A stretch of DNA of 62,830 nt from Candidatus Omnitrophota bacterium (GTDB lineage Bacteria; Omnitrophota; Gorgyraeia; Zapsychrales; Zapsychraceae): contig JADFYJ010000004.1 in the NCBI GenBank assembly GCA_015233115.1, positions 1-62,830 on the forward strand. Reading direction: 5' to 3'. The notes below the pieces were generated by a model that was not told the origin of the DNA, made no database searches, and saw only the letters and a program-made list of their open reading frames with translations. Of the stretch, positions 4,284 to 62,830 are shown piece after piece (within the stretch, counting starts at the first letter, position 1; each line of letters starts with the position of its first letter). The translations under genes were made by a program, and so were the position numbers.

Positions 4284-5026
4284 ATGAAATCTCCTAATTT
4301 TTCGTCCTTTTTAGCGGCTTATGTTCTTATCCTCAGCCTGCCTTTTCTCGTTGGCTGTTTTGTCACTCCTCATTGGTTGGTTCCGACTACGCTGATGTTT
4401 TTATTTGCTTCATTGGGTTTGTTCATCTATTCCCGGCTGAAACATCGTGCGGAGATCCAATTATTGGCTCAGCAAAAGTTGTAGCGGAGAGTTTCGAGTA
4501 TACATTAGAGCCGCTGCACCGGGTATCGAAAATGGTGCAGGTTTTGAATAATTATTCCAAAGGTTATTCTACCGATGATTTCAAAATGTTCAGCGCATTG
4601 GATGCGGTCAATGATTTTAAAGTTTTAGTGCAGGGCAAATTGAAACATGAAGATGTATAATTAACGTATGAAATCGACGATGATTTGCCGAAGGTGGCCG
4701 GCGTGCCGGTATGGGTGCAGGAGGCATTAATGAATTTTGTCACTAATGCTTTGCATTCGTTAAGAGAATCCAAAGGCAAACGGATTGTGATCCGGGTTTT
4801 ACGCCATGACAGGCGCGTTAGGATGGAATGCGAAGACAGCGGCCACGGGATTGCCCCGGAGATGCTTAAAGAAATATTCCATCCTTTTGTAACCACAAAA
4901 TCCACCAGTGAAGGCACGGGCTTAGGTCTCAGCATTGTCCGACGGCACATTGAATCCATGGGCGGAGAAGTCTGGGCGGAAAGTCATGGTATCGGACATG
5001 GCGCGACGTTTGTGGTGATGCTGTAA
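4284..5026 (+). pseudogene. Decayed paralogue of the 799-2034 histidine kinase (internal deletion, frame change, nonsense codon)
   Basis: Three ORF fragments (4284-4484, 4373-4660, 4685-5026). The N-terminal part joins directly to the ESFEYTLEPLHRV region, so the GAF-like and H-box segments are lost. CAA (Gln) of copy 1 is TAA at 4658-4660. The HATPase part is about 85% identical to copy 1. Confidence 0.75.
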
Positions 5027-24575: not shown

Positions 24576-24604
24576 TTGACAAAAGGTATTTCGGGTTTTA
24601 TAAT
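24576..24604 (+). promoter_or_regulatory. Consensus sigma70 promoter upstream of the amtB leader
   Basis: TTGACA (24576-24581), exactly 17 nt, TATAAT (24599-24604). Confidence 0.7.
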
Positions 24605-24656
24605 TAACACAGATTTGAAAGCATTGTAGCTTTCGATAATAAATTTGAAGACAATG

Positions 24657-24700
24657 AAGTCCTTCTTTGGCCGGCGACGGCTGGGGAAGGACTTTTTTTT
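24657..24700 (+). terminator. Intrinsic terminator/attenuator inside the amtB leader
   Basis: AAGTCCTTC...GAAGGACTT stem enclosing GCCG-GCGA-CGGC, followed by T8. Confidence 0.65.
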
Positions 24701-24707
24701 GCGATCC

Positions 24708-24766
24708 GCGACCGAGGACGCAATGTCCGAAGTAGTGCAGAGAGCTCCTGCGAACAGTGCGGTCGC
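24708..24766 (+). ncRNA. Copy of the recurring GACCRAGGACGNAATGTCC...GAGCTCC motif (amtB leader copy, closed by a 7-bp helix)
   Basis: GCGACCG...CGGTCGC closing helix, GGAC-GCAAT-GTCC hairpin, then the second conserved arm. Homologous copies at 29537 and 49608/49658. Confidence 0.5.
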
Positions 24767-27543: not shown

Positions 27544-27708
27544 GGTCACAAAGCCACAAAGTCACAAGGTCACAAAGGGCAATAAAGATTAAAAATCAAG
27601 AACAAAAAAAGAACAACACTTTACCATTCGTTTTTTGTTCCGTTTTTTATAAAATTTTCTCTTTGTGACGTTGTGACTTTGGGCAATCTTGTGTGTGACC
27701 TTGTGACC
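27544..27708. repeat. Long inverted element with GTCACAAAG-word arms (family B)
   Basis: Left arm GGTCACAAAGCCACAAAGTCACAAGGTCACAAAGGG, right arm CTTTGTGACGTTGTGACTTTGGGC...GTGACCTTGTGACC. The core contains GAACAAAAAA/TTTTTTGTTC. Confidence 0.7.
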
Positions 27709-28075: not shown

Positions 28076-29449
28076 ATGTCATATCGTATCGAAACAGACT
28101 TATTGGGTGAGAAAAAAATTTTTGCGAATGTGTATTGGGGTATCCATACGCAGCGTGCGTTGGAAAATTTTTCGATAAGCGGCAAAGTGGTTGCTCTGGA
28201 ATTAGTTAGAGCGATGGCTTTGGTTAAAAAAGCAGCTTGCCTGACGAATCAAAAACTGGGATTTTTAGAATCTCAAAAATCCGCGGCGATTGTTCAGGCT
28301 TGCGGCGAAATTATTGAAGGAAAACTTGACCAATATTTTCCTTTAGATGCTTTACAAGGCGGGGCAGGAACCTCAACCAATATGAACGTGAATGAAGTGA
28401 TTGCCAATCGCGCTATAGAAATTTTGGGTGGAACGAAAGGTGAGTATTCTCTAGTACATCCGATTGAAGAGGTGAACAAACATCAGTCGACCAATGATGT
28501 TTATCCCACGGCTTTAAAAATTGCAGTTTTGTTTTTGTTAAAAGATTTGAGTGGCGCTGTGGCAGAATTGCAAGGCGCTTTTCAGTCAAAAGAAAAAGAA
28601 TTTCATGCTGTGGTTAAAATTGGCCGGACTGAAATGCAGGATGCGGTGCCCATGACTTTGGGTCAGGAATTTTCCGCTTTTGCTGAGGCGTTTAGCCGGG
28701 ACCGTTGGCGAGTGTTTAAGTGCGAAGAGCGGATTCGCACGGTTAATATCGGCGGGTCAGCGATTGGAACAGGATTAACAGCACCCAAGGAATACATTTT
28801 TGGGGTGATTGAGCAAATACAGCAATTAAGCGGGTTGGGAATTTGCCGGGCTGAAAACGTGGTGGACGCGACGGCCAATATGGACGCGTTTGTAGAGGTG
28901 TTTGCGATCCTTAAAGCCCACGCGGTCAATTTGGTTAAAGTGGCAGATGATTTGCGTTTATTATCTATGCTTGGGGAAATCCATTTGCCGCAATTACAAG
29001 CTGGATCGTCGATCATGCCGGGCAAAGTCAATCCGGTTATGCTGGAAGCGGTCATTCAAGTTGGAATCAAAGTGATGGTAGATGAACAAGTTGTGTCTCA
29101 AGCGGCTTCTCGGGGAACATTGCAGATTAATGAATTTTTGCCGCTTTTGGCAGATGTGATTTTAAATGATTTAAAAGTTTTGCACAGTATCAACAAGTTA
29201 TTCACAGCCCACGTCCAGGAAATCAAAGCGGATGCGGTTAAGTGCCGGGAAAATTTGGACCGTTCAACGTCGATTGTAACCGCCTTTATTCCGCAAATCG
29301 GATATGAAAAGTGTGAACAATTGATCAAACAATATGACCCGGCGAACGGAACCGTGAGGGATTTTTTGATTGTCCATTTGGGTCAAGAGTTAGTCGATAA
29401 AATTTTATCAGTCCAAAATTTAACAGCGTTAGGTTATCGTGTTTCGTAG
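28076..29449 (+). CDS. aspA: Aspartate ammonia-lyase / class II fumarase family
   Basis: Fumarate-lyase signature GSSIMPGKVNP. TNMNVNEV and HQSTNDVYPT motifs. 457 aa. Confidence 0.85.
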   Translation: MSYRIETDLLGEKKIFANVYWGIHTQRALENFSISGKVVALELVRAMALVKKAACLTNQKLGFLESQKSAAIVQACGEIIEGKLDQYFPLDALQGGAGTSTNMNVNEVIANRAIEILGGTKGEYSLVHPIEEVNKHQSTNDVYPTALKIAVLFLLKDLSGAVAELQGAFQSKEKEFHAVVKIGRTEMQDAVPMTLGQEFSAFAEAFSRDRWRVFKCEERIRTVNIGGSAIGTGLTAPKEYIFGVIEQIQQLSGLGICRAENVVDATANMDAFVEVFAILKAHAVNLVKVADDLRLLSMLGEIHLPQLQAGSSIMPGKVNPVMLEAVIQVGIKVMVDEQVVSQAASRGTLQINEFLPLLADVILNDLKVLHSINKLFTAHVQEIKADAVKCRENLDRSTSIVTAFIPQIGYEKCEQLIKQYDPANGTVRDFLIVHLGQELVDKILSVQNLTALGYRVS

Positions 29450-29537
29450 GGGCGATCTCCTGATCGCCCGCATCAATCGTTTTTTAAAAAACAAAAACCG
29501 ATAATTTTGTAACGGGCGATCAGGAGATCGCCCCTAC
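29446..29537. repeat. REP-like palindromic element, inverted pair
   Basis: GTAGGGGCGATCTCCTGATCGCCCG (29446-29470) and its complement CGGGCGATCAGGAGATCGCCCCTAC (29513-29537). The aspA TAG stop lies inside the first copy. Confidence 0.85.
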
Positions 29538-29586
29538 GACCAAGGACGTAATGTCCGCATAGTACCAGGAGCTCCGCGAGTGGTGC
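29537..29586 (+). ncRNA. Copy of the recurring motif (hydF leader copy)
   Basis: CGACCAAGGACGTAATGTCCGCATAGTACCAGGAGCTCCGCGAGTGGTGC. It ends 13 nt before the hydF ATG, which has no obvious RBS. Confidence 0.45.
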
Positions 29587-29599
29587 AACAAATAAATCT

Positions 29600-30808
29600 A
29601 TGAATACACCAAAAAGCTTACGTTTACAAATTGGAATTTTCGGCCGGACCAATGTCGGCAAGTCAAGTTTTTTGAATTTGGCGGCAGGCCAGGATGTGGC
29701 GATCACCTCCAGTGTTCCGGGTACTACGACGGATGTGGTTGAAAAAACCATGGAGCTTTTACCGATCGGGCCAGTGGTGTTTTTGGATACAGCCGGATTG
29801 GATGACACTTCAGTTTTGTCCGGCGAACGGATTCGTAAAACCAAAAAAATATTCGGTCGGGCGGATGTGATGGTTTTACTGGTCGAACCGAATGTATGGA
29901 CCGGATTTGAAGATGATATTTGTGAACAAGCAAAAGTTCATCAAACGCCATTAGTTGTGGTTATTAATAAAGCAGATCAAGCCGAGCCTACGGAAGTATT
30001 TTTAAACGCAGTTAGAGAATTAACGCCTCAGGTGATGACCTGCGTCAGCATAGATCTTTCGCGCCGCGATTATTTTTTGAACCAGTTCAAACAAATACTC
30101 ATTAAAGTCTGCCCTGAAGATTTTTTACAACCGTTGAGTTTGATTGGGGATTTAGTGCCTGCCGGCGGTTTGGCGGTTTTGGTTGTCCCTATTGATTTAG
30201 CCGCTCCGAAAGGCCGGTTGATTCTGCCTCAGGTTCAGACGATTAGAGACGCTTTAGATAATGATGCGGCTGTGTTGGTGGTCAAAGAACGGGAATACCG
30301 CGCGGTTTTAGATAACTTGAAAAAACTTCCGGATGTGGTGATTTGTGATTCGCAGGTCGTACAGAAAATGGTGGCTGATACACCGAAAAATATTAAATGC
30401 ACCACATTTTCGATTATTTTTGCCCGGTTTAAAGGCGAGCTGAATGAATTAGTGAAGGGTGCACAGATGATTGACCGTTTGAAAGACGGCGATAAAGTTT
30501 TGATTGCCGAAGCCTGTTCTCATCATGCGGTCGAAGATGATATTGGCCGCGTAAAAATTCCGCGTTGGCTCAGGCAATATACCGGGGCGGATTTGGTGAT
30601 TGATGTGTGCGCTGGACGGGATTATCCGGAAAATTTGGCACAGTATAAATTGATCATTCATTGTGGCGCGTGCATGCTGACCAGACGGGAAATGTTAGCC
30701 CGCATGCATTATGCCGGAAATCAAAAAGTCGCAGTGACCAATTATGGAGTATGTATTTCCATGCTCCAGGGAGTGCTGAATAGGGTATTGGAGCCATTTT
30801 TAAAGTGA
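29600..30808 (+). CDS. hydF: [FeFe]-hydrogenase maturation GTPase HydF
   Basis: G1 GRTNVGKSS, G3 DTAG, G4 NKAD. C-terminal FeS ligands CSHH...HCGAC. Confidence 0.85.
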   Translation: MNTPKSLRLQIGIFGRTNVGKSSFLNLAAGQDVAITSSVPGTTTDVVEKTMELLPIGPVVFLDTAGLDDTSVLSGERIRKTKKIFGRADVMVLLVEPNVWTGFEDDICEQAKVHQTPLVVVINKADQAEPTEVFLNAVRELTPQVMTCVSIDLSRRDYFLNQFKQILIKVCPEDFLQPLSLIGDLVPAGGLAVLVVPIDLAAPKGRLILPQVQTIRDALDNDAAVLVVKEREYRAVLDNLKKLPDVVICDSQVVQKMVADTPKNIKCTTFSIIFARFKGELNELVKGAQMIDRLKDGDKVLIAEACSHHAVEDDIGRVKIPRWLRQYTGADLVIDVCAGRDYPENLAQYKLIIHCGACMLTRREMLARMHYAGNQKVAVTNYGVCISMLQGVLNRVLEPFLK

Positions 30809-32420: not shown

Positions 32421-32445
32421 GTAGGGGCGATCACCTGATCGCCCG
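32421..32445. repeat. REP-like palindromic element, single copy
   Basis: GTAGGGGCGATCACCTGATCGCCCG followed by the TAACAAAATAATCG tail. Confidence 0.85.
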
Positions 32446-38265: not shown

Positions 38266-38381
38266 TTAGGGGCGATCACCTGATCGCCCGCTTACAAACA
38301 AATCGTTTTTTTTATAACTATATTTTATCATGAAATCAAAAGCGTCAATTTTGACGCGGGCGATCAGGAGATCGCCCCTAC
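38266..38381. repeat. REP-like palindromic element, inverted pair
   Basis: TTAGGGGCGATCACCTGATCGCCCG (38266-38290) and CGGGCGATCAGGAGATCGCCCCTAC (38357-38381). The inner palindrome GCGTCAATTTTGACGC is at 38342-38357. Confidence 0.85.
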
Positions 38382-49483: not shown

Positions 49484-49487
49484 AAGA

Positions 49488-49527
49488 TTTCACACGGATT
49501 TCACAATTGCTTTGCAAAATGTTCATT
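49488..49527 (+). promoter_or_regulatory. Pho-box-like direct repeats upstream of pstS
   Basis: TTTCACA(49488)-N4-TTTCACA(49499)-N15-GTTCATT(49521), the same spacing as the porin site. TATATA/TATAAA at 49543-49550. Confidence 0.55.
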
Positions 49528-49568: not shown

Positions 49569-49592
49569 CGGGCGATCAGGAGATCGCCCTAC
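49569..49592. repeat. REP-like palindromic element, reverse orientation
   Basis: CGGGCGATCAGGAGATCGCCCTAC. Confidence 0.8.
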
Positions 49593-49607: not shown

Positions 49608-49707
49608 GCGACCAAGGACGAAATGTCCGCGTAGTGCTGGAAGCTCCCGCGAGCAGCGCGACCAAGGACGAAATGTCCGCGTAGTGCTGGAAGCTCCCGC
49701 GAGCAGT
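49608..49707 (+). ncRNA. Two tandem 50-nt copies of the recurring motif in the pstS leader
   Basis: GCGACCAAGGACGAAATGTCCGCGTAGTGCTGGAAGCTCCCGCGAGCAGC occurs twice (49608-49657 and 49658-49707), followed by the hairpin GCGAAAA-N7-TTTTCGC (49708-49728). Confidence 0.5.
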
Positions 49708-49732: not shown

Positions 49733-49757
49733 GTAGGGGCGATCACCTGATCGCCCG
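49733..49757. repeat. REP-like palindromic element, single copy
   Basis: GTAGGGGCGATCACCTGATCGCCCG. Confidence 0.85.
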
Positions 49758-55049: not shown

Positions 55050-55127
55050 TTGGCGCAGGAGGGGACTTCACACAGAATTTACATCCGCATAACTATTTAT
55101 TCATATCTGTCGTCTATACTTTACTAC

Positions 55128-58100
55128 ATGAATCTATATCGGTGTCTGATTTCGACTGTGAGTTGGCGCCCGGCATTTGTCCGTCGGGGTTTGGTCGTTT
55201 GTAATAAATTATTTCGGGGTCGAGATCTGACACCATTTATGCGTGTTTTGTGTTGTTTTGTTTTAATGGCTTATGCCACTAACATCATAGGGGCAGATTT
55301 GATTGGTTTACAATCTGCCAATGCTCAAACGACTCTCGTGATCCCACAGGTTGCGTTACTTTCACCCTCGGTGTCTTTTTCTCTTCCGACTTTAAAAGGC
55401 ATTGCTTTAGACGCGGCTGATCCGTTTAAAATGAATTTTATCGTTGAAGCGGGGAATAATTCGCTGGTCCAACAAGACCAGATTAAACAACTCACCCAAT
55501 ATTTTTTGACGTTTTTGACCATTCCAGAAAAAGATTTGTGGGTTAATTTATCTCCGCATGAATCGAACCGCATTATTACGGCTGATTTGGAGTCTACCAG
55601 CGTCGGGCGAGATATGTTGGTGCAAGATTATATTTTAAAGCAACTGGCTGCATCATTGACATACCCTGATCAGGATACCGGGGAAAAATTTTGGGAACAG
55701 GTGTCAGAAAAGATTAAGAAAAAATATGGAGATATTAATATTCCAGGGAACACCTTCAGCAAAGTTTGGGTGGTCCCGGAAAAGGCTGTAGTGTATGAAG
55801 AAAAAGGTTCCGCGTTTATTGGTGAAAGCCGTTTAAAAGTTATGCTCAAAGAGGAGGATACAGCACAAATTAATCAGTTGTACTCTGGGATCGCGCGTGA
55901 AGTGATTATTCCCGAGCTGGAACGTGAGGTAAATGAAGGCCGTCATTTCGCTCAATTACGTCAGATGTTCAATTCTCTTATTTTAGCTGTTTGGTTTAAA
56001 CGCCACCTTGAGAAAAATATTGTTAATGTGGTTTATTCAGACCAAAAAAAAATATCCGGCATTGAATTGGATGAGAAAAAAATTGGAGAGAAAGTTTACG
56101 CGCAATATATGAATGCGATAAAAAAAGGGGTTTATAATATTGTCCGGGAGGATTATGATCCCAATACGCAGAAAATCATTCCGAAAAAATATTATTCCGG
56201 CGGGTTTTCTTTTGGCAATTCAGAACAATGGGAACAAGTAGAGCCTTCGTCGTCTTTTAAAGGCAGACTTTACAGCTTATTTCATAAATGGGGCAAAAGT
56301 CTTTATCGCTTTACTGTTTCATTGATTCCGAAAGGTATTTCAAAGAAAAGCCTTTTGACCGCAGTCATCGCCGCTGGTTTAATGGCAGCCTCGATGAGTA
56401 TTCAGGCGAAAGCGGTAGAGACGGGGACACGGTTTTCAAATCTTCCAAACAGCGCTCATGTTGTGAAGGCCGATCATGTTTCGTTCAGTGAGCGTTTCGC
56501 ACAGTTTAAAGCTGAACATGGGGAAGATATCCAGAAAGCTTCAGAAAACCTTGATCAAAATTATGTGCGTCACTTAGAGCAGGGCGATTATGACGTTGTC
56601 ACAGATAACGGCGTTCAGGAAACAGAGTTAAAAGCCAATCTGGAAACATTAGGTGAGTCCTGGAATAAAGTAAAAAGTGACGCGACAGAGGTTGTTGCGT
56701 TGCAGGAATTCTTGGGAGTAAAAGCGGATGGGAAAATCGGTTCTCTTCAGACGGATCCAAGATTAAAACAGGCAGCGGAAGAAGTAAGAAATGCGCCAAC
56801 CGCAGAGGCATCAGAGTCTCGGGTGATACCTGCTCTAGAAAATATAGCTAACGTTCACCAAACAGTTCAGGAACAAATACCAACACCAGAAATCACATCA
56901 ACGCCGACAGCCATGCCAACGCCAGAAGTCAAGCAGGCACCAAGGGTTGCTCCAGCGCCCCAAATTACACGGGCACCCCAAGTGACTTTGGCTCCAATTT
57001 TTACTCCCGTACCAAAAGTTGCGCAGGTAACAAACGTATTACCCACATCTGTGCCCACACCAGTAGATACAGTAACTACTATCAGCCAGATAAGTAAACA
57101 AACGAACATTGTGGGAAGTCCTTGTACATCACCAGAATGCAAACCTGATAGGGACTCAACAGTATTGCCGTTCGCTTTTAATCAACCCTATGTTTTTTTC
57201 GGCGGCGTTCACGCCATTTTAGATGACGGCATTATTAAATCACCGGCAGGGGGAATTATAAGGGGCTTGGATGGACGTAAAACATATTACAATAATGGGA
57301 GTCGTGTATTATTGATAGTCCCAGAAAAAATGGATAAAGAAAGAGAAGCGTTATTACAACAAAAAATCGTTGAAGAAAGAAGGCTTAATGATTTAAAACA
57401 ATTAAGAGTTTCCGGTTCTGCCACAGACGCGGAAATCAACCCGGTGCAGACTAGAATTAATGAGCTTGAGCAAAAATTAGCTCAAATGGATCAGGAAATA
57501 TTCGCGATAGACGCTCCTTGTGCTTTGGGAGTAAACGGAGAAATTTTAGTTTCAGAAGGAATGACGATAAGGAAGGGGACCGAGGTCTTTAAATATCTTA
57601 ATCATGAAAGAATTCGGATTACTTTAAAAGAAAATCTTCCTTCTAATATCACCTATTTGGGAAATATGAAATTGAGGATTAACACAGAGCCGGTCAAAAA
57701 TATTGATGAAGTGCGGCTTCAACCGAATCCGGAGAAAAACGGAACTATTGCTTCTTTTGTCGTCATTCCTGCTTCACCCATTTCGGCAGGTGAGGTGCAA
57801 ATGCATCTTGAAATTTTACCTCCCAATATTTCAGATAATAATTTTGCTTCTGTTCAGGAACAGTACCGAGGATTAAGTTCAATTCATCATTTGACGGAGC
57901 GGAGGGTTCCTGTTTCAGCTGACGGGACGGCCAAACGTTTTGTGAATCCGGGTGATTCTGTTAAAGCAGGTCAAGTCATAGGAAGAATCGAACTTGAAAA
58001 ATATCAAGAGCAATTAAAAACAGCCATTTCAACTTATAATAGTATACAAAAAGATTTAAATTTAGCTTCTCAGGATGCCATAGGAATTGTGCATATTACC

Positions 58101-61100
58101 CGAGATAAAAGCGCGGATTTAGAGGCTAAAAAAGCTTCTGTCCTAGGCGAAATCAAAGCTTTTCAAACTCAAATTTCTAGACTCACAATTGTCTCCCCCA
58201 TAAACGGAATAGTTTCAGATGTTTCGTGGGCAAGTTCATTTAAAGAAGGCGATGAATTTGTGCGCATAAAAACTGGTGAGGCAATTGTCGGAGATATGGA
58301 TAAAGGTTCTTCTTGGGTTATTTTGCCAAAAAGTTTAAACCTTAAAGAGGGAGATCCGGTTTTATTTGAAACGCTTTCCGGACAGCGATTACCTGGAAAA
58401 ATAATGACTGCCCCCGACCAAACACCTCAAAGTATAGAGATGAATTTGGGGAATGATGTTCAGGCCGTTCAGATTACGATCTACGATGAAGATTTAATTA
58501 ATAATGGAAAAAGTTCGTTAGGCGAAAATTTGCCGGGGTCAATTATTGTTCCAGCCGAAAATGATAAAGAAAAAATTAAATCAGCGCTTAAAAGAATAGA
58601 CGAAAAAATCCAGGAAAATGACCGCCAATATAATGAAAGTTTGAAAAGACAACAGCCGGAAGCTTTGGTTTATTGGGAAGATTCAGCACATAGCGAGACG
58701 CCTGTCAATCAGCCGGCTATTACACATAGCACATTGGTTCCTCAAGGACAAAGGGTTACAGTTGAAGATGTGGCAAAGGGTGTTGGGGGCAATTTTTTGC
58801 AGATCGGCGATCTAACTCTGGAAGTGCTGCAAAAACAATCAGCCGAGAAATTGCCGGATGCCGTGAGTGTGGCTTTGCAAGGCAATATCATTTTTCAGAA
58901 TGGCAAATTAACTTATAGCGGTGGATTGAACGCGGTTTACCAAGGCGTTACAGCAGGTATTTCAACCGGTAATGCTTATGCGGCGGCACTGCCTATTATT
59001 TACCAAGTCGAAGGAAATCTGGTTAGTCTTATTTCCGGACAAAAAGTTAAAGAAAAAGAATTGGCCTTGTTAAGGACCGAGATTGCTCAGCATCATATGG
59101 AAAAAGAAGTCGCTTCGCTTATCAATAAAGCAACCGCGTTGTTGATAGATATAGGTCGTGAAGAGCAACAGATTAACATTCTAAAGGATTTGGTTTCAGA
59201 TTTAGAAAAAGCTTTAGGCGTAAGTACAGCGAGAGAAGCAGGTGGTTTTTCGAGCAGTGCCAATACCAATGCCATCAGGCAACAAATTGAAAATACTCAT
59301 TCACAAATTCTGGAATTAGAAAAAAATAACCGGCAATCGGCAATCGAACTTAACAATATGATCGGTTCTGGTTTGAAAACAGAAATTTCTCCTGTTTTAC
59401 ATTGGGATGGACAATTTCCGGTTTTGGGAGCTGATTTGGAACAAAAATGGCAAGATTGGTTGATGAGTGATCATAGCGCGAATTATACCTTGCGGGAAGC
59501 GCAAGCGTTGTTGAGGGCGATTTTAAAAACCTGTGAATTGCAAAGACAAGGGGATTTGCCTTCAGCGGATTTATTGGCTCTTTATCTTTCAGGCAGCGCT
59601 TCCAATCCTCAGCAAAATATTGTCAGCGGAGAAATGCTAAAAGTGCCTTCCGCGGGCGGCAATACGGTTTTTGGCGTTAGAATTCCAATTCCCAAGCTAC
59701 CTTTTTTTACAACCAAAGAACAAATAAATGAACAAATTATCAGTCAGGAGGAACAGCGGGCTCGTCTGCATTTAGATTCTATCAAACAAGAACTTCAGAA
59801 ACAATTTGTAGAAACAATATCGGAATTAAGGGATTTAAGCCGGCAGATTATTGATGCGCAGTCGGCCTATCAAACGGCCTATGAATCTTGGAGACAAAAG
59901 GCTATCCGCACGGAAGGAATGGGGGCCAGTGGAGAGAGTATTTATACCCAAGACGCGTTATATAATGAACGCGTCCACATCGCGCAAATGTTACAAAAAG
60001 GGGTAGATCTTAAGGCCCAATATTTAAAAGCAGAAGAAAAAATAAGAGAAATGGGACTTTTAAAGCCTGATCAGACTATCGTGAAGCCATCCGCCGGTAA
60101 ATCTGGCTTGGAAACAGTTCCTTCTCGATCTTACCAGAATAAAGAAAAGTTATTAGCTATGCCGTCCAGCCCTAATCGATTATCGTCCGGCGGGAAAAAT
60201 CATGGCCCCAGTGAGTTCCTGTCAGCAGGGGTGGTTATCCTTCCGGCGGATCATGAATATTGGCTCACGGTAATGGCTCAAACCGCGCCTGGCGCTGATG
60301 ATTCGCGATATAACGCGATTGAGCAAATCCTTATGAGTCAACCCGATATAAGAATGCGTAACCAGGCCTTGGATTCTTTTTTGGAATTCCAGAATGATTC
60401 GACCTTTGCGAATGAAGTAGCAAAAATTGTTTTGAAATCTCCTTATCCCGACGTGACCCAAAAACTTCTTTTATTTATGGTGGATCGTGAAGATCATGAT
60501 GTCCGTTTTTTTATGAGCGTTATTAATCAATCCATAAAAGATAAAAAATTTGTTCTGGCTAATTTAGGGTTTCAGATAATGAGTGATATGTTGACCCAGG
60601 ACGCGACCATTTTTGATAAATTAAGTGAATTAAACATCCATAATCGTTCAACGGTCAGCAGGCCAATTTCAGTCGAAGATTCCAGAAAAATTTGGCTGAA
60701 CTTTATGTCGCGTTTACCGGATGATTCATTAGCTAAAATGCGGTTATTACAAGGCAATTATTGGAATGACGATCAGCTGGCAAATATTTATAATACCCTC
60801 AAATTAAGTCAAGAACCACAGGCAGAATCATTGGCCAAGTTGATCGATGCTGAAATTTTACGGCGGCAGAAACTACAAAATATTGTTGAAGTTTTTAGAT
60901 TGGGACCTTTTCAGTCTCCGGAATCCATTGATGTGACCCCACATTATTTGTATCAAAAATTTGCTGAAGAAAACCGGGCTTTTTTAAGCACTTCGCCACA
61001 ATGGAACGAACCAGGTGATTGGACTTTTACTGATTTGAACCGGCGAGCTAAAACGGCCAGAGATAATTTAATTTCTGGCAATCCGGCGCCGGAGTCTTCG

Positions 61101-62830
61101 GGCGAACTTCTATATCATTTTGCGGTTCCTCATGGTGAAGCAGGAGATCCGTTAACTTACTTTAAAAATTTAGGTTTAGACGCCCAAAAAGAATATATCG
61201 CGCGGACAAAAAATTCATCTGAACTGATGAGGATAGCTGTTTTTTCTTCGTCATTGAGGGGCAAGGCCCTGGAGCGTTTAATGAAAACTCCAGCTGACCG
61301 CATATTGGTATTACAAGCTTATGCGGATTCAAAAGATGATGAACTTTGTAAATTAATTGAACAAAACCGCAATTGGCGGGATGTTATAAAAGCAGATATA
61401 GAAAAATTAGCTAGCCCGGTAGTTACGGATATAATACGACGATCAATGGAAAAAATGTATGGCAGGATTCATGAAGATTGGCCTTTAAATTTGCGTTTAG
61501 CAACGTTTACCTATCCCGAAATACATGCCTTGACGGATCCTCGCGGTGAAAGCCTGCGACAAGACCGGGCGAATCAAATGGCTACCATGATGGCATTAGA
61601 CTTGATTGGAGAACGTCAGGACCATCAATTATTACCTTGGGTCAGATGGTTTGGACAATTGTCAGCCAAAGAGGTGAGAGTGATCGAAGAAGTAAGAAAG
61701 ATAATTAAATTGTCCGATGATCCACAGAATGCCGGCCGTTATTTGGAAAGTCAAAGTCAAAGTGCGGATCAGGACATCAGAAAAATAACCGGAAAAATTA
61801 TCAACCAGCGAGATAAATTGGCTCAAAGGATCGTCAACAATGATCAGAGGCTGCCTAGGGTGCCTTGGTGGACAGGGATGGTGGTGGGGACTTTGGCTGT
61901 GGGAACATTCGGGTTTTTCGGATGGAAAAATATCCGCCGCTCACAAATTAAACACGCCAAAACTAAAAATAAAATTATAGAATTAAGGAATGAATTACTA
62001 CCGGAAGGCCCTTTAAAATATGGGGCGGTTGATGAAAAATGCGGCATCAACTTAAAAAATTGGGAAGAAATTGTGGCGCAATGGGGAGGGCCAATATCGC
62101 TTCCTCCTCGGGAATTTGTTCATAGTCTCAATACGGTTATGGTTCTGGCCGAGGAAATTCTTCGTTGGAATCCCTATACGGAAAAATTGATGTGGGACGA
62201 GGAAGATCTTGATGGGCATGTCCCCAATGAAAAATATGATAAAATTTATAAATATTTTATTTGGCTTGCCGTTAAGACTAAAGACAACATGAATTTGCAG
62301 TTGGTCAATAATAATTTTGACGGGTATCAGAAGAAAGAAATACAAAACGCCATTGATAAATTAACGTGTATGATTGAACACGCGAGGAAATTCGCGGTCA
62401 TTTTAGAAGCCCGTTGGATTTTTGATAATGATGCAAGTTATAAATTCCGTGAAGGCGACATTCAAGAAAAAATTTATTGGCTGCCTCGAAAAATTCTTGG
62501 GTATAGTTATAAATGGACCAAAGCCAAAGAAATATTGAATAGAGAGGTTCCGCTATTATTGGATCAGGGAGAGAGTTTAATGCCCGGGCTTTATGGCGAT
62601 AAACGCCCTAAAATTATTGAAGATAGCGAGCTTTTATTAGAGAAAGTTATTCGCGAAGCAAAGAAATTTGTTTCTTTTGGTTCAAAAACCATGCAGGAAG
62701 CACCTAAGAAACGCAGATTTCGCAGCCGTGCTTTGACGATTTTAGGTTTTTCTTTACCATTCATTGGCGCTATAGCGGGTTCTTTTTTTGGTGTTCCTTT
62801 AGTCATTTCTTTCAGTATTCTATCTCTGCC
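55128..62830 (+). CDS. Giant multidomain envelope protein, 3-prime partial (at least 2,567 codons; continues beyond the window)
   Basis: Uninterrupted frame from ATG 55128 (upstream in-frame TAA at 55047) to the last base. The frame was verified at five checkpoints. Signal-like N-terminus, Pro/Thr linker, MFP-like lipoyl/hairpin module, TolC-like repeats, helical repeats and TM helices. Only short alternative-frame ORFs are listed here in the track. Confidence 0.8.
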   Translation, partial: MNLYRCLISTVSWRPAFVRRGLVVCNKLFRGRDLTPFMRVLCCFVLMAYATNIIGADLIGLQSANAQTTLVIPQVALLSPSVSFSLPTLKGIALDAADPFKMNFIVEAGNNSLVQQDQIKQLTQYFLTFLTIPEKDLWVNLSPHESNRIITADLESTSVGRDMLVQDYILKQLAASLTYPDQDTGEKFWEQVSEKIKKKYGDINIPGNTFSKVWVVPEKAVVYEEKGSAFIGESRLKVMLKEEDTAQINQLYSGIAREVIIPELEREVNEGRHFAQLRQMFNSLILAVWFKRHLEKNIVNVVYSDQKKISGIELDEKKIGEKVYAQYMNAIKKGVYNIVREDYDPNTQKIIPKKYYSGGFSFGNSEQWEQVEPSSSFKGRLYSLFHKWGKSLYRFTVSLIPKGISKKSLLTAVIAAGLMAASMSIQAKAVETGTRFSNLPNSAHVVKADHVSFSERFAQFKAEHGEDIQKASENLDQNYVRHLEQGDYDVVTDNGVQETELKANLETLGESWNKVKSDATEVVALQEFLGVKADGKIGSLQTDPRLKQAAEEVRNAPTAEASESRVIPALENIANVHQTVQEQIPTPEITSTPTAMPTPEVKQAPRVAPAPQITRAPQVTLAPIFTPVPKVAQVTNVLPTSVPTPVDTVTTISQISKQTNIVGSPCTSPECKPDRDSTVLPFAFNQPYVFFGGVHAILDDGIIKSPAGGIIRGLDGRKTYYNNGSRVLLIVPEKMDKEREALLQQKIVEERRLNDLKQLRVSGSATDAEINPVQTRINELEQKLAQMDQEIFAIDAPCALGVNGEILVSEGMTIRKGTEVFKYLNHERIRITLKENLPSNITYLGNMKLRINTEPVKNIDEVRLQPNPEKNGTIASFVVIPASPISAGEVQMHLEILPPNISDNNFASVQEQYRGLSSIHHLTERRVPVSADGTAKRFVNPGDSVKAGQVIGRIELEKYQEQLKTAISTYNSIQKDLNLASQDAIGIVHITRDKSADLEAKKASVLGEIKAFQTQISRLTIVSPINGIVSDVSWASSFKEGDEFVRIKTGEAIVGDMDKGSSWVILPKSLNLKEGDPVLFETLSGQRLPGKIMTAPDQTPQSIEMNLGNDVQAVQITIYDEDLINNGKSSLGENLPGSIIVPAENDKEKIKSALKRIDEKIQENDRQYNESLKRQQPEALVYWEDSAHSETPVNQPAITHSTLVPQGQRVTVEDVAKGVGGNFLQIGDLTLEVLQKQSAEKLPDAVSVALQGNIIFQNGKLTYSGGLNAVYQGVTAGISTGNAYAAALPIIYQVEGNLVSLISGQKVKEKELALLRTEIAQHHMEKEVASLINKATALLIDIGREEQQINILKDLVSDLEKALGVSTAREAGGFSSSANTNAIRQQIENTHSQILELEKNNRQSAIELNNMIGSGLKTEISPVLHWDGQFPVLGADLEQKWQDWLMSDHSANYTLREAQALLRAILKTCELQRQGDLPSADLLALYLSGSASNPQQNIVSGEMLKVPSAGGNTVFGVRIPIPKLPFFTTKEQINEQIISQEEQRARLHLDSIKQELQKQFVETISELRDLSRQIIDAQSAYQTAYESWRQKAIRTEGMGASGESIYTQDALYNERVHIAQMLQKGVDLKAQYLKAEEKIREMGLLKPDQTIVKPSAGKSGLETVPSRSYQNKEKLLAMPSSPNRLSSGGKNHGPSEFLSAGVVILPADHEYWLTVMAQTAPGADDSRYNAIEQILMSQPDIRMRNQALDSFLEFQNDSTFANEVAKIVLKSPYPDVTQKLLLFMVDREDHDVRFFMSVINQSIKDKKFVLANLGFQIMSDMLTQDATIFDKLSELNIHNRSTVSRPISVEDSRKIWLNFMSRLPDDSLAKMRLLQGNYWNDDQLANIYNTLKLSQEPQAESLAKLIDAEILRRQKLQNIVEVFRLGPFQSPESIDVTPHYLYQKFAEENRAFLSTSPQWNEPGDWTFTDLNRRAKTARDNLISGNPAPESSGELLYHFAVPHGEAGDPLTYFKNLGLDAQKEYIARTKNSSELMRIAVFSSSLRGKALERLMKTPADRILVLQAYADSKDDELCKLIEQNRNWRDVIKADIEKLASPVVTDIIRRSMEKMYGRIHEDWPLNLRLATFTYPEIHALTDPRGESLRQDRANQMATMMALDLIGERQDHQLLPWVRWFGQLSAKEVRVIEEVRKIIKLSDDPQNAGRYLESQSQSADQDIRKITGKIINQRDKLAQRIVNNDQRLPRVPWWTGMVVGTLAVGTFGFFGWKNIRRSQIKHAKTKNKIIELRNELLPEGPLKYGAVDEKCGINLKNWEEIVAQWGGPISLPPREFVHSLNTVMVLAEEILRWNPYTEKLMWDEEDLDGHVPNEKYDKIYKYFIWLAVKTKDNMNLQLVNNNFDGYQKKEIQNAIDKLTCMIEHARKFAVILEARWIFDNDASYKFREGDIQEKIYWLPRKILGYSYKWTKAKEILNREVPLLLDQGESLMPGLYGDKRPKIIEDSELLLEKVIREAKKFVSFGSKTMQEAPKKRRFRSRALTILGFSLPFIGAIAGSFFGVPLVISFSILSL

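Follow-up and report, generated by a model that had tools for sequence, protein, structure and literature searches.

The window analysed here is a 62,830-nt stretch of contig JADFYJ010000004.1 from Candidatus Omnitrophota (GCA_015233115.1), in which a short motif recurs in the 5′ regions of three genes, amtB, hydF and pstS. A first-pass annotation had listed four copies and read them as a structured RNA in the leaders of nitrogen, phosphate and hydrogenase-cofactor genes. The sequences and coordinates of the copies were right, and the gene identities agree with Pfam, which assigned the downstream genes to Ammonium_transp (followed by P-II), HydF, and PBP_like_2 (PstS) with pstCAB and phoU. The amtB leader contains a single repeat unit at 24707–24766 on the plus strand, recognized by sequence and fold and matched by our covariance model with 62.5 bits (E=2e-14). 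It lies 41 nt 5′ of the amtB ATG (24807), with a promoter and a terminator-like hairpin further upstream. A second single unit is located immediately 5′ of hydF at 29535–29588 (plus strand; 58 bits), its 3′ end 11 nt before the hydF ATG at 29600. The pstS 5′ region carries a head-to-tail pair at 49608–49657 and 49658–49707, both on the plus strand and both detected by sequence, as repeat family D5 and by the covariance model. These two units are 50 nt each, directly abut and are 98% identical. Recurrence is far above chance: the hairpin pattern GGACGNAATGTCC matched four times in the window against 0.23 expected, and four matches were reached in none of 100 shuffles. With filters off, the covariance model found the four known copies as its only matches in the window.

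When considered as a single strand, the unit forms two adjacent hairpins, H1 and H2. H1 is a rod capped by the hairpin GGAC-GNAAU-GUCC, below which follow a tandem G.A/A.G internal loop (GA.AG), a CC:GG step, a second small internal loop (GA.AA) and a G.U/C-G step (GC). H2 consists of a 5–7 bp stem and an 11–12-nt loop carrying AGCUCC. The capping hairpin, with only its loop varying, is common to all four copies. The three compensatory changes noted between the H2 helices of pstS (GTGCTG/CAGCGC) and hydF (GTACCA/TGGTGC) are correct, as is the single mismatch in the second helix of the amtB copy, which is A.A. The shared box had been drawn slightly too wide: AGCTCC is present in all copies, but GAGCTCC only in amtB and hydF, the pstS copies having GAAGCTCC. 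In the amtB unit, whose H1 is GGAC-GCAAT-GTCC, H1 and H2 are additionally closed by an outer stem, GCGACCG/CGGTCGC.

To look beyond the window we scanned genomes, one per species, with a two-anchor pattern, which gave 28 loci. About 22 of them come from metagenome-assembled genomes (MAGs) of Candidatus Omnitrophota, some labelled Planctomycetia, and the remainder are chance matches within genes of unrelated bacteria. A covariance model was built from 23 copies, and in 22 genome loci of Omnitrophota it recognized 26 copies. Metagenomes were scanned with anchors placed outside hairpin 1, which returned 83 loci with 72 model matches at E < 0.01, about 65 of them convincing. The covariance-model search of genomes and metagenomes, which the first-pass annotation had proposed as a check, thus yielded about 100 further Omnitrophota copies. 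Copy counts refer to loci of 8–14 kb rather than to whole genomes (individual loci are given below as L numbers). The units have a GC content of 58–70% compared with 37–50% for the host genomes, and they are about 85% identical between genomes in which orthologous proteins share only 40–67%. Four of the Omnitrophota contigs start or end within a unit, as is usually seen when a repeat present in many copies is assembled from short reads. Viral contigs gave no match to the motif pattern, and hence no sign of phage carriage.

This collection allowed the fold to be assessed by covariation. Among 46 distinct copies aligned by fitting to the covariance model, 93.4% of pair cells are standard pairs, compared with about 32% when the partners are slid, and both-sided changes occur in 10 of the 13 pairs. 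None of 500 shuffles matched the observed pairing values, and a MAFFT alignment (A1) gave a like result. In the sample that was not selected on H1, the stem GGAC/GUCC changes to GAAC/GUUC, GGGC/GCCC and AGAC/GUCU. The conserved structure with compensatory base changes therefore holds both in the 46 copies and where the search did not fix H1. No Rfam family matched at its gathering score anywhere in the window, and permissive E-value scans of the pstS and amtB copies and of five related loci gave weak unrelated matches only, in line with the motif not having been recognized as a known family.

Next, we determined where the copies lie relative to genes. After removal of duplicates, 49 unique sites remained. 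Where the flanking genes are co-directional, 19 sites are in sense orientation, four of them intragenic, and nine are antisense; further sites are found downstream of genes or where two genes converge. One antisense site (L010) was checked by eye, and here the reverse complement of the ribosome-binding site (RBS) and ATG of a Rossmann-fold gene abuts the element. It is true that all four window copies are in sense orientation, but this carries no weight because essentially every gene in the window lies on the plus strand. A sense-oriented 5′ leader element is not what these positions describe. The copies also multiply locally in head-to-tail arrays, with two units at the window pstS gene and up to about five elsewhere. 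At L058, a stretch of 13.7 kb holds 11 copies, among them directly adjoining runs of a 49-nt and of a 73-nt unit. Simple units of 49–55 nt have the two hairpins, and composite units reach 73–80 nt. A different hairpin (TCCC...GGGA) can take the place of H1 or be arranged in series with it; in the 73-nt unit of L058, H1 is truncated and this other hairpin is inserted.

Copies are also found inside genes, in both orientations and translated in frame, which does not fit an element restricted to leaders. In sense orientation the unit encodes the peptide DRGRNVRGSAESSANGQ in TPR proteins, namely in two homologous ones (L087 and L053) and at L081 and L038. There are three copies within coding repeats of 87–115 residues in L087, two in its sister locus L053 and a single one in L081. 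L087:7690–9456 and L053:1251–2756 are the same TPR gene from two samples and differ by one motif-bearing coding repeat of 261 nt, an intragenic length polymorphism driven by the repeat. An OprB-type porin (L028) contains this peptide as well, in its N-terminal coiled coil, while a 39%-identical homolog (L003) lacks it. In antisense orientation, a complete 78-nt element including a CGTC head is translated as DWSLAGARDTSSDISSSVASSSLAMT within a queuine tRNA-ribosyltransferase (TGT; L026). This host gene is full-length (Pfam E=4e-161), and the element amounts to a net 17-aa loop insertion relative to the Zymomonas mobilis TGT (PDB 1ozm). A further antisense in-frame copy lies in an N-terminal loop of a Wzy_C-family protein (L096). 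The consensus unit has zero stops in all six frames. These results show that the unit is a discrete, modular and structured repeat that occupies unrelated sites in either orientation, also in frame within genes, and that it multiplies locally head to tail.

The unit is further linked to repetitive extragenic palindromes (REPs). REP superfamilies are defined by a terminal unpaired tag and show complementary stem variants and G.T pairs; the stems of the CGTC superfamily begin A-T, T-A, and some REP families have large structured loops (Di Nocera, De Gregorio and Rocco 2013, PMC3733652). In the window we counted 8–9 copies of GTAG-GGGCGATC-NCCT-GATCGCCC, in both orientations and with an A/T-rich tail. 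Two of them form a tail-to-tail dimer around the pstS units. The left arm, GGGCGATC-AGGA-GATCGCCC followed by TAC, lies at 49570–49592 on the minus strand (repeat families D6 and I24), and the right arm, GTAG-GGGCGATC-ACCT-GATCGCCC, at 49733–49756 on the plus strand (D2 and I24), both also found in the REP census. The block therefore reads REP (reverse), two units, REP (forward). At hydF, a head-to-head GTAG REP dimer (29446–29469 forward, 29514–29537 reverse; I19, 27 nt, 100% complementary) abuts the unit, the 5′ end of which shares 3 nt with the CTAC tag of the reverse-oriented REP. The contacts with REPs that had been pointed out for two copies are thus real. The GTAG REPs are confined to the 29–50 kb part of the window (29446–49756), with head-to-head dimers at 29446–29537 and 38266–38381 and singles near 32421, 40060 and 44376.

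In many other genomes the unit sits in a CGTC REP scaffold, CGTC-ATTGC-GAG ... GCC-AAT-C. The head CGTCATTGCGAG is found 15–61 nt upstream in 13 of 54 distinct copies, and many copies end with GCC-AAT-C. Another 17 elements in the motif loci are short and stand alone, with the structure CGTC-ATTGC-GAG-[variable perfect hairpin]-CGAA-GCAAT-C. Such short elements are frequent in L017, L002, L014, L023 and L040, with up to eight in the 6.4-kb L017. Translation of their reverse strand gives '...FARND'-type peptides, which makes them a likely source of spurious small open reading frames (ORFs) in MAG annotations. A literature search for the CGTC-head string gtcattgcgag returned unrelated primers only, and no paper on repetitive extragenic palindromes of Omnitrophica was found.

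We then asked whether the copies keep company with particular genes. No protein family recurs beside them in the neighbourhoods of motif-bearing loci, and AmtB, P-II, HydF, HydG-like, PstS and porin homologs are all absent from the 108 loci compared. The window PstS has no close relative, the best being 67% identical. The gene order phoBR-porin-pstS-pstCAB-phoU is common to four Omnitrophota loci (L112–L115), in which the covariance model detected no unit in the porin-pstS spacer. These spacers measure 76–154 nt, compared with 312 nt in the window, and one of them (L112) belongs to MAG nDJH6bin14, which has copies elsewhere (L008 and L020). The proposed tie to nitrogen, phosphate and hydrogenase-cofactor genes thus fails both at the neighbouring genes and at orthologous pstS leaders. 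Comparison with the four spacers also pointed to a Pho-box-like direct repeat, TTTCACA-cgga-TTTCACA, at 49487–49505 on the plus strand. This repeat (TTTCACA n4 TTTCACA and variants) stands right after the Porin_5 gene, a position kept in five Omnitrophota loci. A scan for consensus sigma-70 promoters at the repeat found nothing, and the region is a putative promoter. In the window the REP-unit-unit-REP block is placed between this repeat and the pstS RBS. Since the four syntenic spacers share the Pho-box-like repeat and are devoid of the unit, the block looks like a lineage-specific insertion between a putative Pho-regulated promoter region and the pstS RBS.

The other two leaders have features of their own. 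For the hydF ATG (29600) there is no Shine-Dalgarno sequence at a distance of about 15 nt or less, because the REP dimer and unit abut the start (29564–29602). The only AGGAG near the start is in the H2 loop, 31 nt upstream, and the native hydF RBS may have been displaced or replaced by the insertion. The amtB leader contains a 12/12 consensus sigma-70 promoter, TTGACA-17-TATAAT, at 24576–24604. Next come a strong terminator-like hairpin at 24656–24695 and a T8 run, and only after these the repeat unit and the RBS of amtB. Promoter and hairpin together (24576–24703) could constitute an attenuator or give rise to a short leader transcript. Nothing convincing was found when the amtB leader was compared with Rfam, the best match being Phe_leader, which scored 21.5 bits where 55 is the gathering score.

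Taken together, orientation, intragenic copies, arrays and REP contacts favour the composite mobile repeat that the first-pass annotation had held as its alternative. We consider it probable, with good confidence, that the motif belongs, as the repeating unit, to a dispersed family of GC-rich, non-coding, REP-associated mosaic repeats of Candidatus Omnitrophota and is not a gene-specific leader. In such a family the hairpins would be conserved because the propagation machinery recognizes the single-stranded fold. The likeliest agent would be an HUH tyrosine transposase of the REP-associated (RAYT) or IS200-IS605 type, acting on single-stranded DNA hairpins beside a GTAG or CGTC tag; GTAG REPs have been linked to RAYT transposases (PMC3733652). 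Arrays would grow by slippage or unequal exchange, and inside genes an insertion would survive only if it is free of stops, has a length of 3n and falls in a loop or linker. Transcribed copies would form stable RNA hairpins that the host may tolerate or even find mildly useful. At the three window sites, lineage-specific insertions would accordingly be transcribed together with amtB, hydF and pstS as part of their 5′ regions, and any effect on these genes would be a by-product of position without a shared regulatory logic.

Known repeat systems provide partial parallels. Like the Omnitrophota unit, GTAG and CGTC REPs are GC-rich hairpins with many, mostly intergenic copies, some intragenic ones, complementary stem changes and G.T pairs, and they occur in mosaic clusters in Neisseria and also within genes (PMC3733652). 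The partner hairpins in the window carry GTAG, and the scaffold in other MAGs carries CGTC together with the A-T, T-A stem start. Hosts from the PVC group are already known for these REPs, namely R. baltica and O. terrae (PMC3733652). Unlike REPs, the Omnitrophota unit is larger (49–55 versus 20–40 nt), has two hairpins instead of a single palindrome, is untagged and is about 85% conserved across many MAGs; it multiplies head to tail, whereas head-to-tail dimers of REPs are rare. The NIMEs of Neisseria and the BIMEs of E. coli resemble it in architecture, in that a longer repeat is bracketed by short REP-type inverted repeats in an intergenic, modular arrangement. NIMEs are repeat units flanked by dRS3 inverted repeats, and dRS3 is the CGTC-1 REP. 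Their sequences are unrelated and they belong to another phylum, and the Omnitrophota unit is also found without flanking REPs and in genes. In Neisseria, the CGTC-1 elements lie interspersed among those of other repeat families, and two of the Rickettsia palindromic elements (RPEs), RPE-4 and RPE-6, are CGTC REPs (PMC3733652). RPEs share with our unit that they are palindromic, stop-free and inserted in frame into intact genes, including those for RNA-modification enzymes, adding about 20–30 residues in loops or linkers. The Omnitrophota copies differ in being mostly intergenic and in forming tandem arrays, and their hosts are environmental Omnitrophota rather than obligate intracellular alpha-proteobacteria. 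Mycobacterial interspersed repetitive units (MIRUs) are direct tandem repeats of 40–100 nt that lie intergenically in operons, mostly in sense orientation and with variable unit number, and thus resemble the sense-biased arrays described here. MIRUs carry short ORFs that overlap the flanking genes for translational coupling. In the Omnitrophota unit, by contrast, the frames starting at the H1-loop ATG are inconsistent (3 aa, 6 aa or long), and a two-hairpin build is not a feature of MIRUs. Judging from Rfam and the literature searched, the family has not been described before, and it is kin to REP-associated mosaic or RPE-like repeats.

Several observations weigh against a REP-associated mobile repeat. 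The unit has no terminal GTAG or CGTC tag of its own, head-to-tail arrays are unusual for classical REPs, and the insertions at the window sites are deduced from distant orthologs of 39–67% identity. CGTC REPs have no known dedicated transposase (PMC3733652). A RAYT/IS200 signature gave no match in 835 kb of sequence, although the pattern was a heuristic regular expression and the sample is too small for this to mean anything. Finally, the 19:9 sense bias, the GNRA-like loop varying only at N and the tandem G.A pairs are compatible with a role at the RNA level, as is a unit identity of about 85% where orthologous proteins share 40–67%.

The last of these points lead to the alternative that survives best, a generic RNA module that spread as DNA and is kept because its hairpins serve the host on sense mRNA. 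It overlaps with the mobile-repeat reading and appears possible but rather unlikely. Such a module could be a barrier to 3′-5′ exonucleases or a stabiliser of the transcript, an RNase site that uncouples the genes of an operon, or the site of a conserved RNA-binding protein, and a similar case has been argued for many REPs (PMC3733652). Besides the sense bias, the conserved GNAAU loop, the tandem G.A pairs and a conservation exceeding that of the surrounding proteins, it can draw on arrays that occupy successive intergenic spaces of one co-directional gene string. It also gains from the fold itself, as in 36 of 44 copies the more stable fold is that of the motif strand, and G.U cells outnumber A.C cells by 43 to 6. 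However, specificity of the fold for the motif strand is weakly supported because a single outer pair contributes 36 of the 43 G.U cells, the rest being 7 versus 6. The sense bias is concentrated in one array-rich, repeatedly sampled lineage, so that the sites are not independent. One third of the co-directional sites are antisense, other copies are intragenic, and neither a T-run nor any other known functional signal follows the hairpins. A role for the unit as terminator was rejected for the same lack of a T-run after H2. A mini-ORF composed of a Shine-Dalgarno-like GAGGA and the invariant ATG in the H1 loop was likewise discarded, as its frames stop after 3 aa (window pstS and hydF) or 6 aa (L058) or run on.

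A more specific version, somewhat less probable again, is that the unit is no mere selfish DNA but has been domesticated and is bound by a conserved Omnitrophota factor for generic control of mRNA stability, processing or translation at every site where a copy lies in sense. On this view it would be an element found throughout the phylum and conserved in sequence, whose two hairpins offer a GNRA-like loop, tandem G.A pairs and, with AGCUCC, a second loop resembling an anti-Shine-Dalgarno sequence. If this were true, spread at the DNA level would have supplied a ready-made post-transcriptional toolkit.

Far less can be said for a gene-specific cis-regulatory leader RNA that acts on amtB, hydF and pstS in the manner of a riboswitch or attenuator. 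In favour of this main reading of the first-pass annotation are the four structured sense copies 5′ of start codons in the window, real covariation and the lack of an Rfam match, and we now regard it as very improbable. The apparent orientation evidence is cancelled by the all-plus gene arrangement, and outside the window nine of 28 co-directional sites are antisense. Copies further occur within ORFs in both orientations, downstream of genes and between convergent genes. None elsewhere lies near an AmtB, HydF or PstS homolog, and the unit is missing from four syntenic pstS leaders, one of them from a copy-bearing genome. Equally hard to credit are independent small-RNA genes or processed RNA arrays, such as type III antitoxin-like repeats or a multi-copy small RNA. 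Head-to-tail runs of structured units of 49–73 nt, including the pstS tandem pair, would suit them, but no gene such as a toxin recurs up- or downstream (the window units precede amtB, hydF and pstS), no conserved promoter or terminator surrounds the units, array composition is variable, and copies are translated in genes. The least likely explanation is that the family began as a protein-coding repeat for DRGRNVRGSAESSANGQ with the intergenic copies as decayed gene fragments, for although three independent sense intragenic occurrences use one common reading frame, unit lengths of 49, 50 and 73 nt (none a multiple of 3) and 1-nt indels break any frame, the window and L058 units have stops in some frames, antisense in-frame copies encode a different peptide, compensation acts at the level of nucleotide pairs, and the host proteins are unrelated.

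For further work on these genomes, the motif should be set aside as a lead to a new riboswitch-like leader of genes for nitrogen, phosphate or hydrogenase functions. The repeat yields spurious ORFs, 5′ extensions and broken assemblies, and screens for RNA motifs as well as gene calls on Omnitrophota should mask or model it. The family connects GTAG and CGTC REPs with a larger two-hairpin module in an uncultured phylum, and its in-frame insertion into conserved genes such as tgt is a behaviour best known from Rickettsia RPEs. It offers a substrate for asking how CGTC REPs move and whether such repeats affect gene expression and protein evolution in Omnitrophota.

The window contains several further features. 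An apparent ORF desert towards its end is explained by a single giant ORF on the plus strand (55050–62828), which spans the region with at least 2,592 codons and runs off the window end; Omnitrophota typically have giant genes. A second family of inverted repeats, which is unrelated and built from GTATGTGGTA-like words, occurs downstream of the P-II gene (26529–26570/26663–26697) and near 40.9 kb (40848–40889/40990–41024), with the arms of each pair about 90–100 nt apart. Two intergenic inverted repeats consist of short reiterated words, of GTCACAA type at 27557–27595/27643–27681 and of GGTAAAGGT type at 30794–30824/30863–30893, and both look like operator or binding-site arrays. Finally, a direct repeat of 300 nt with 81% identity (1481–1780 and 4476–4775) probably represents paralogous gene segments.

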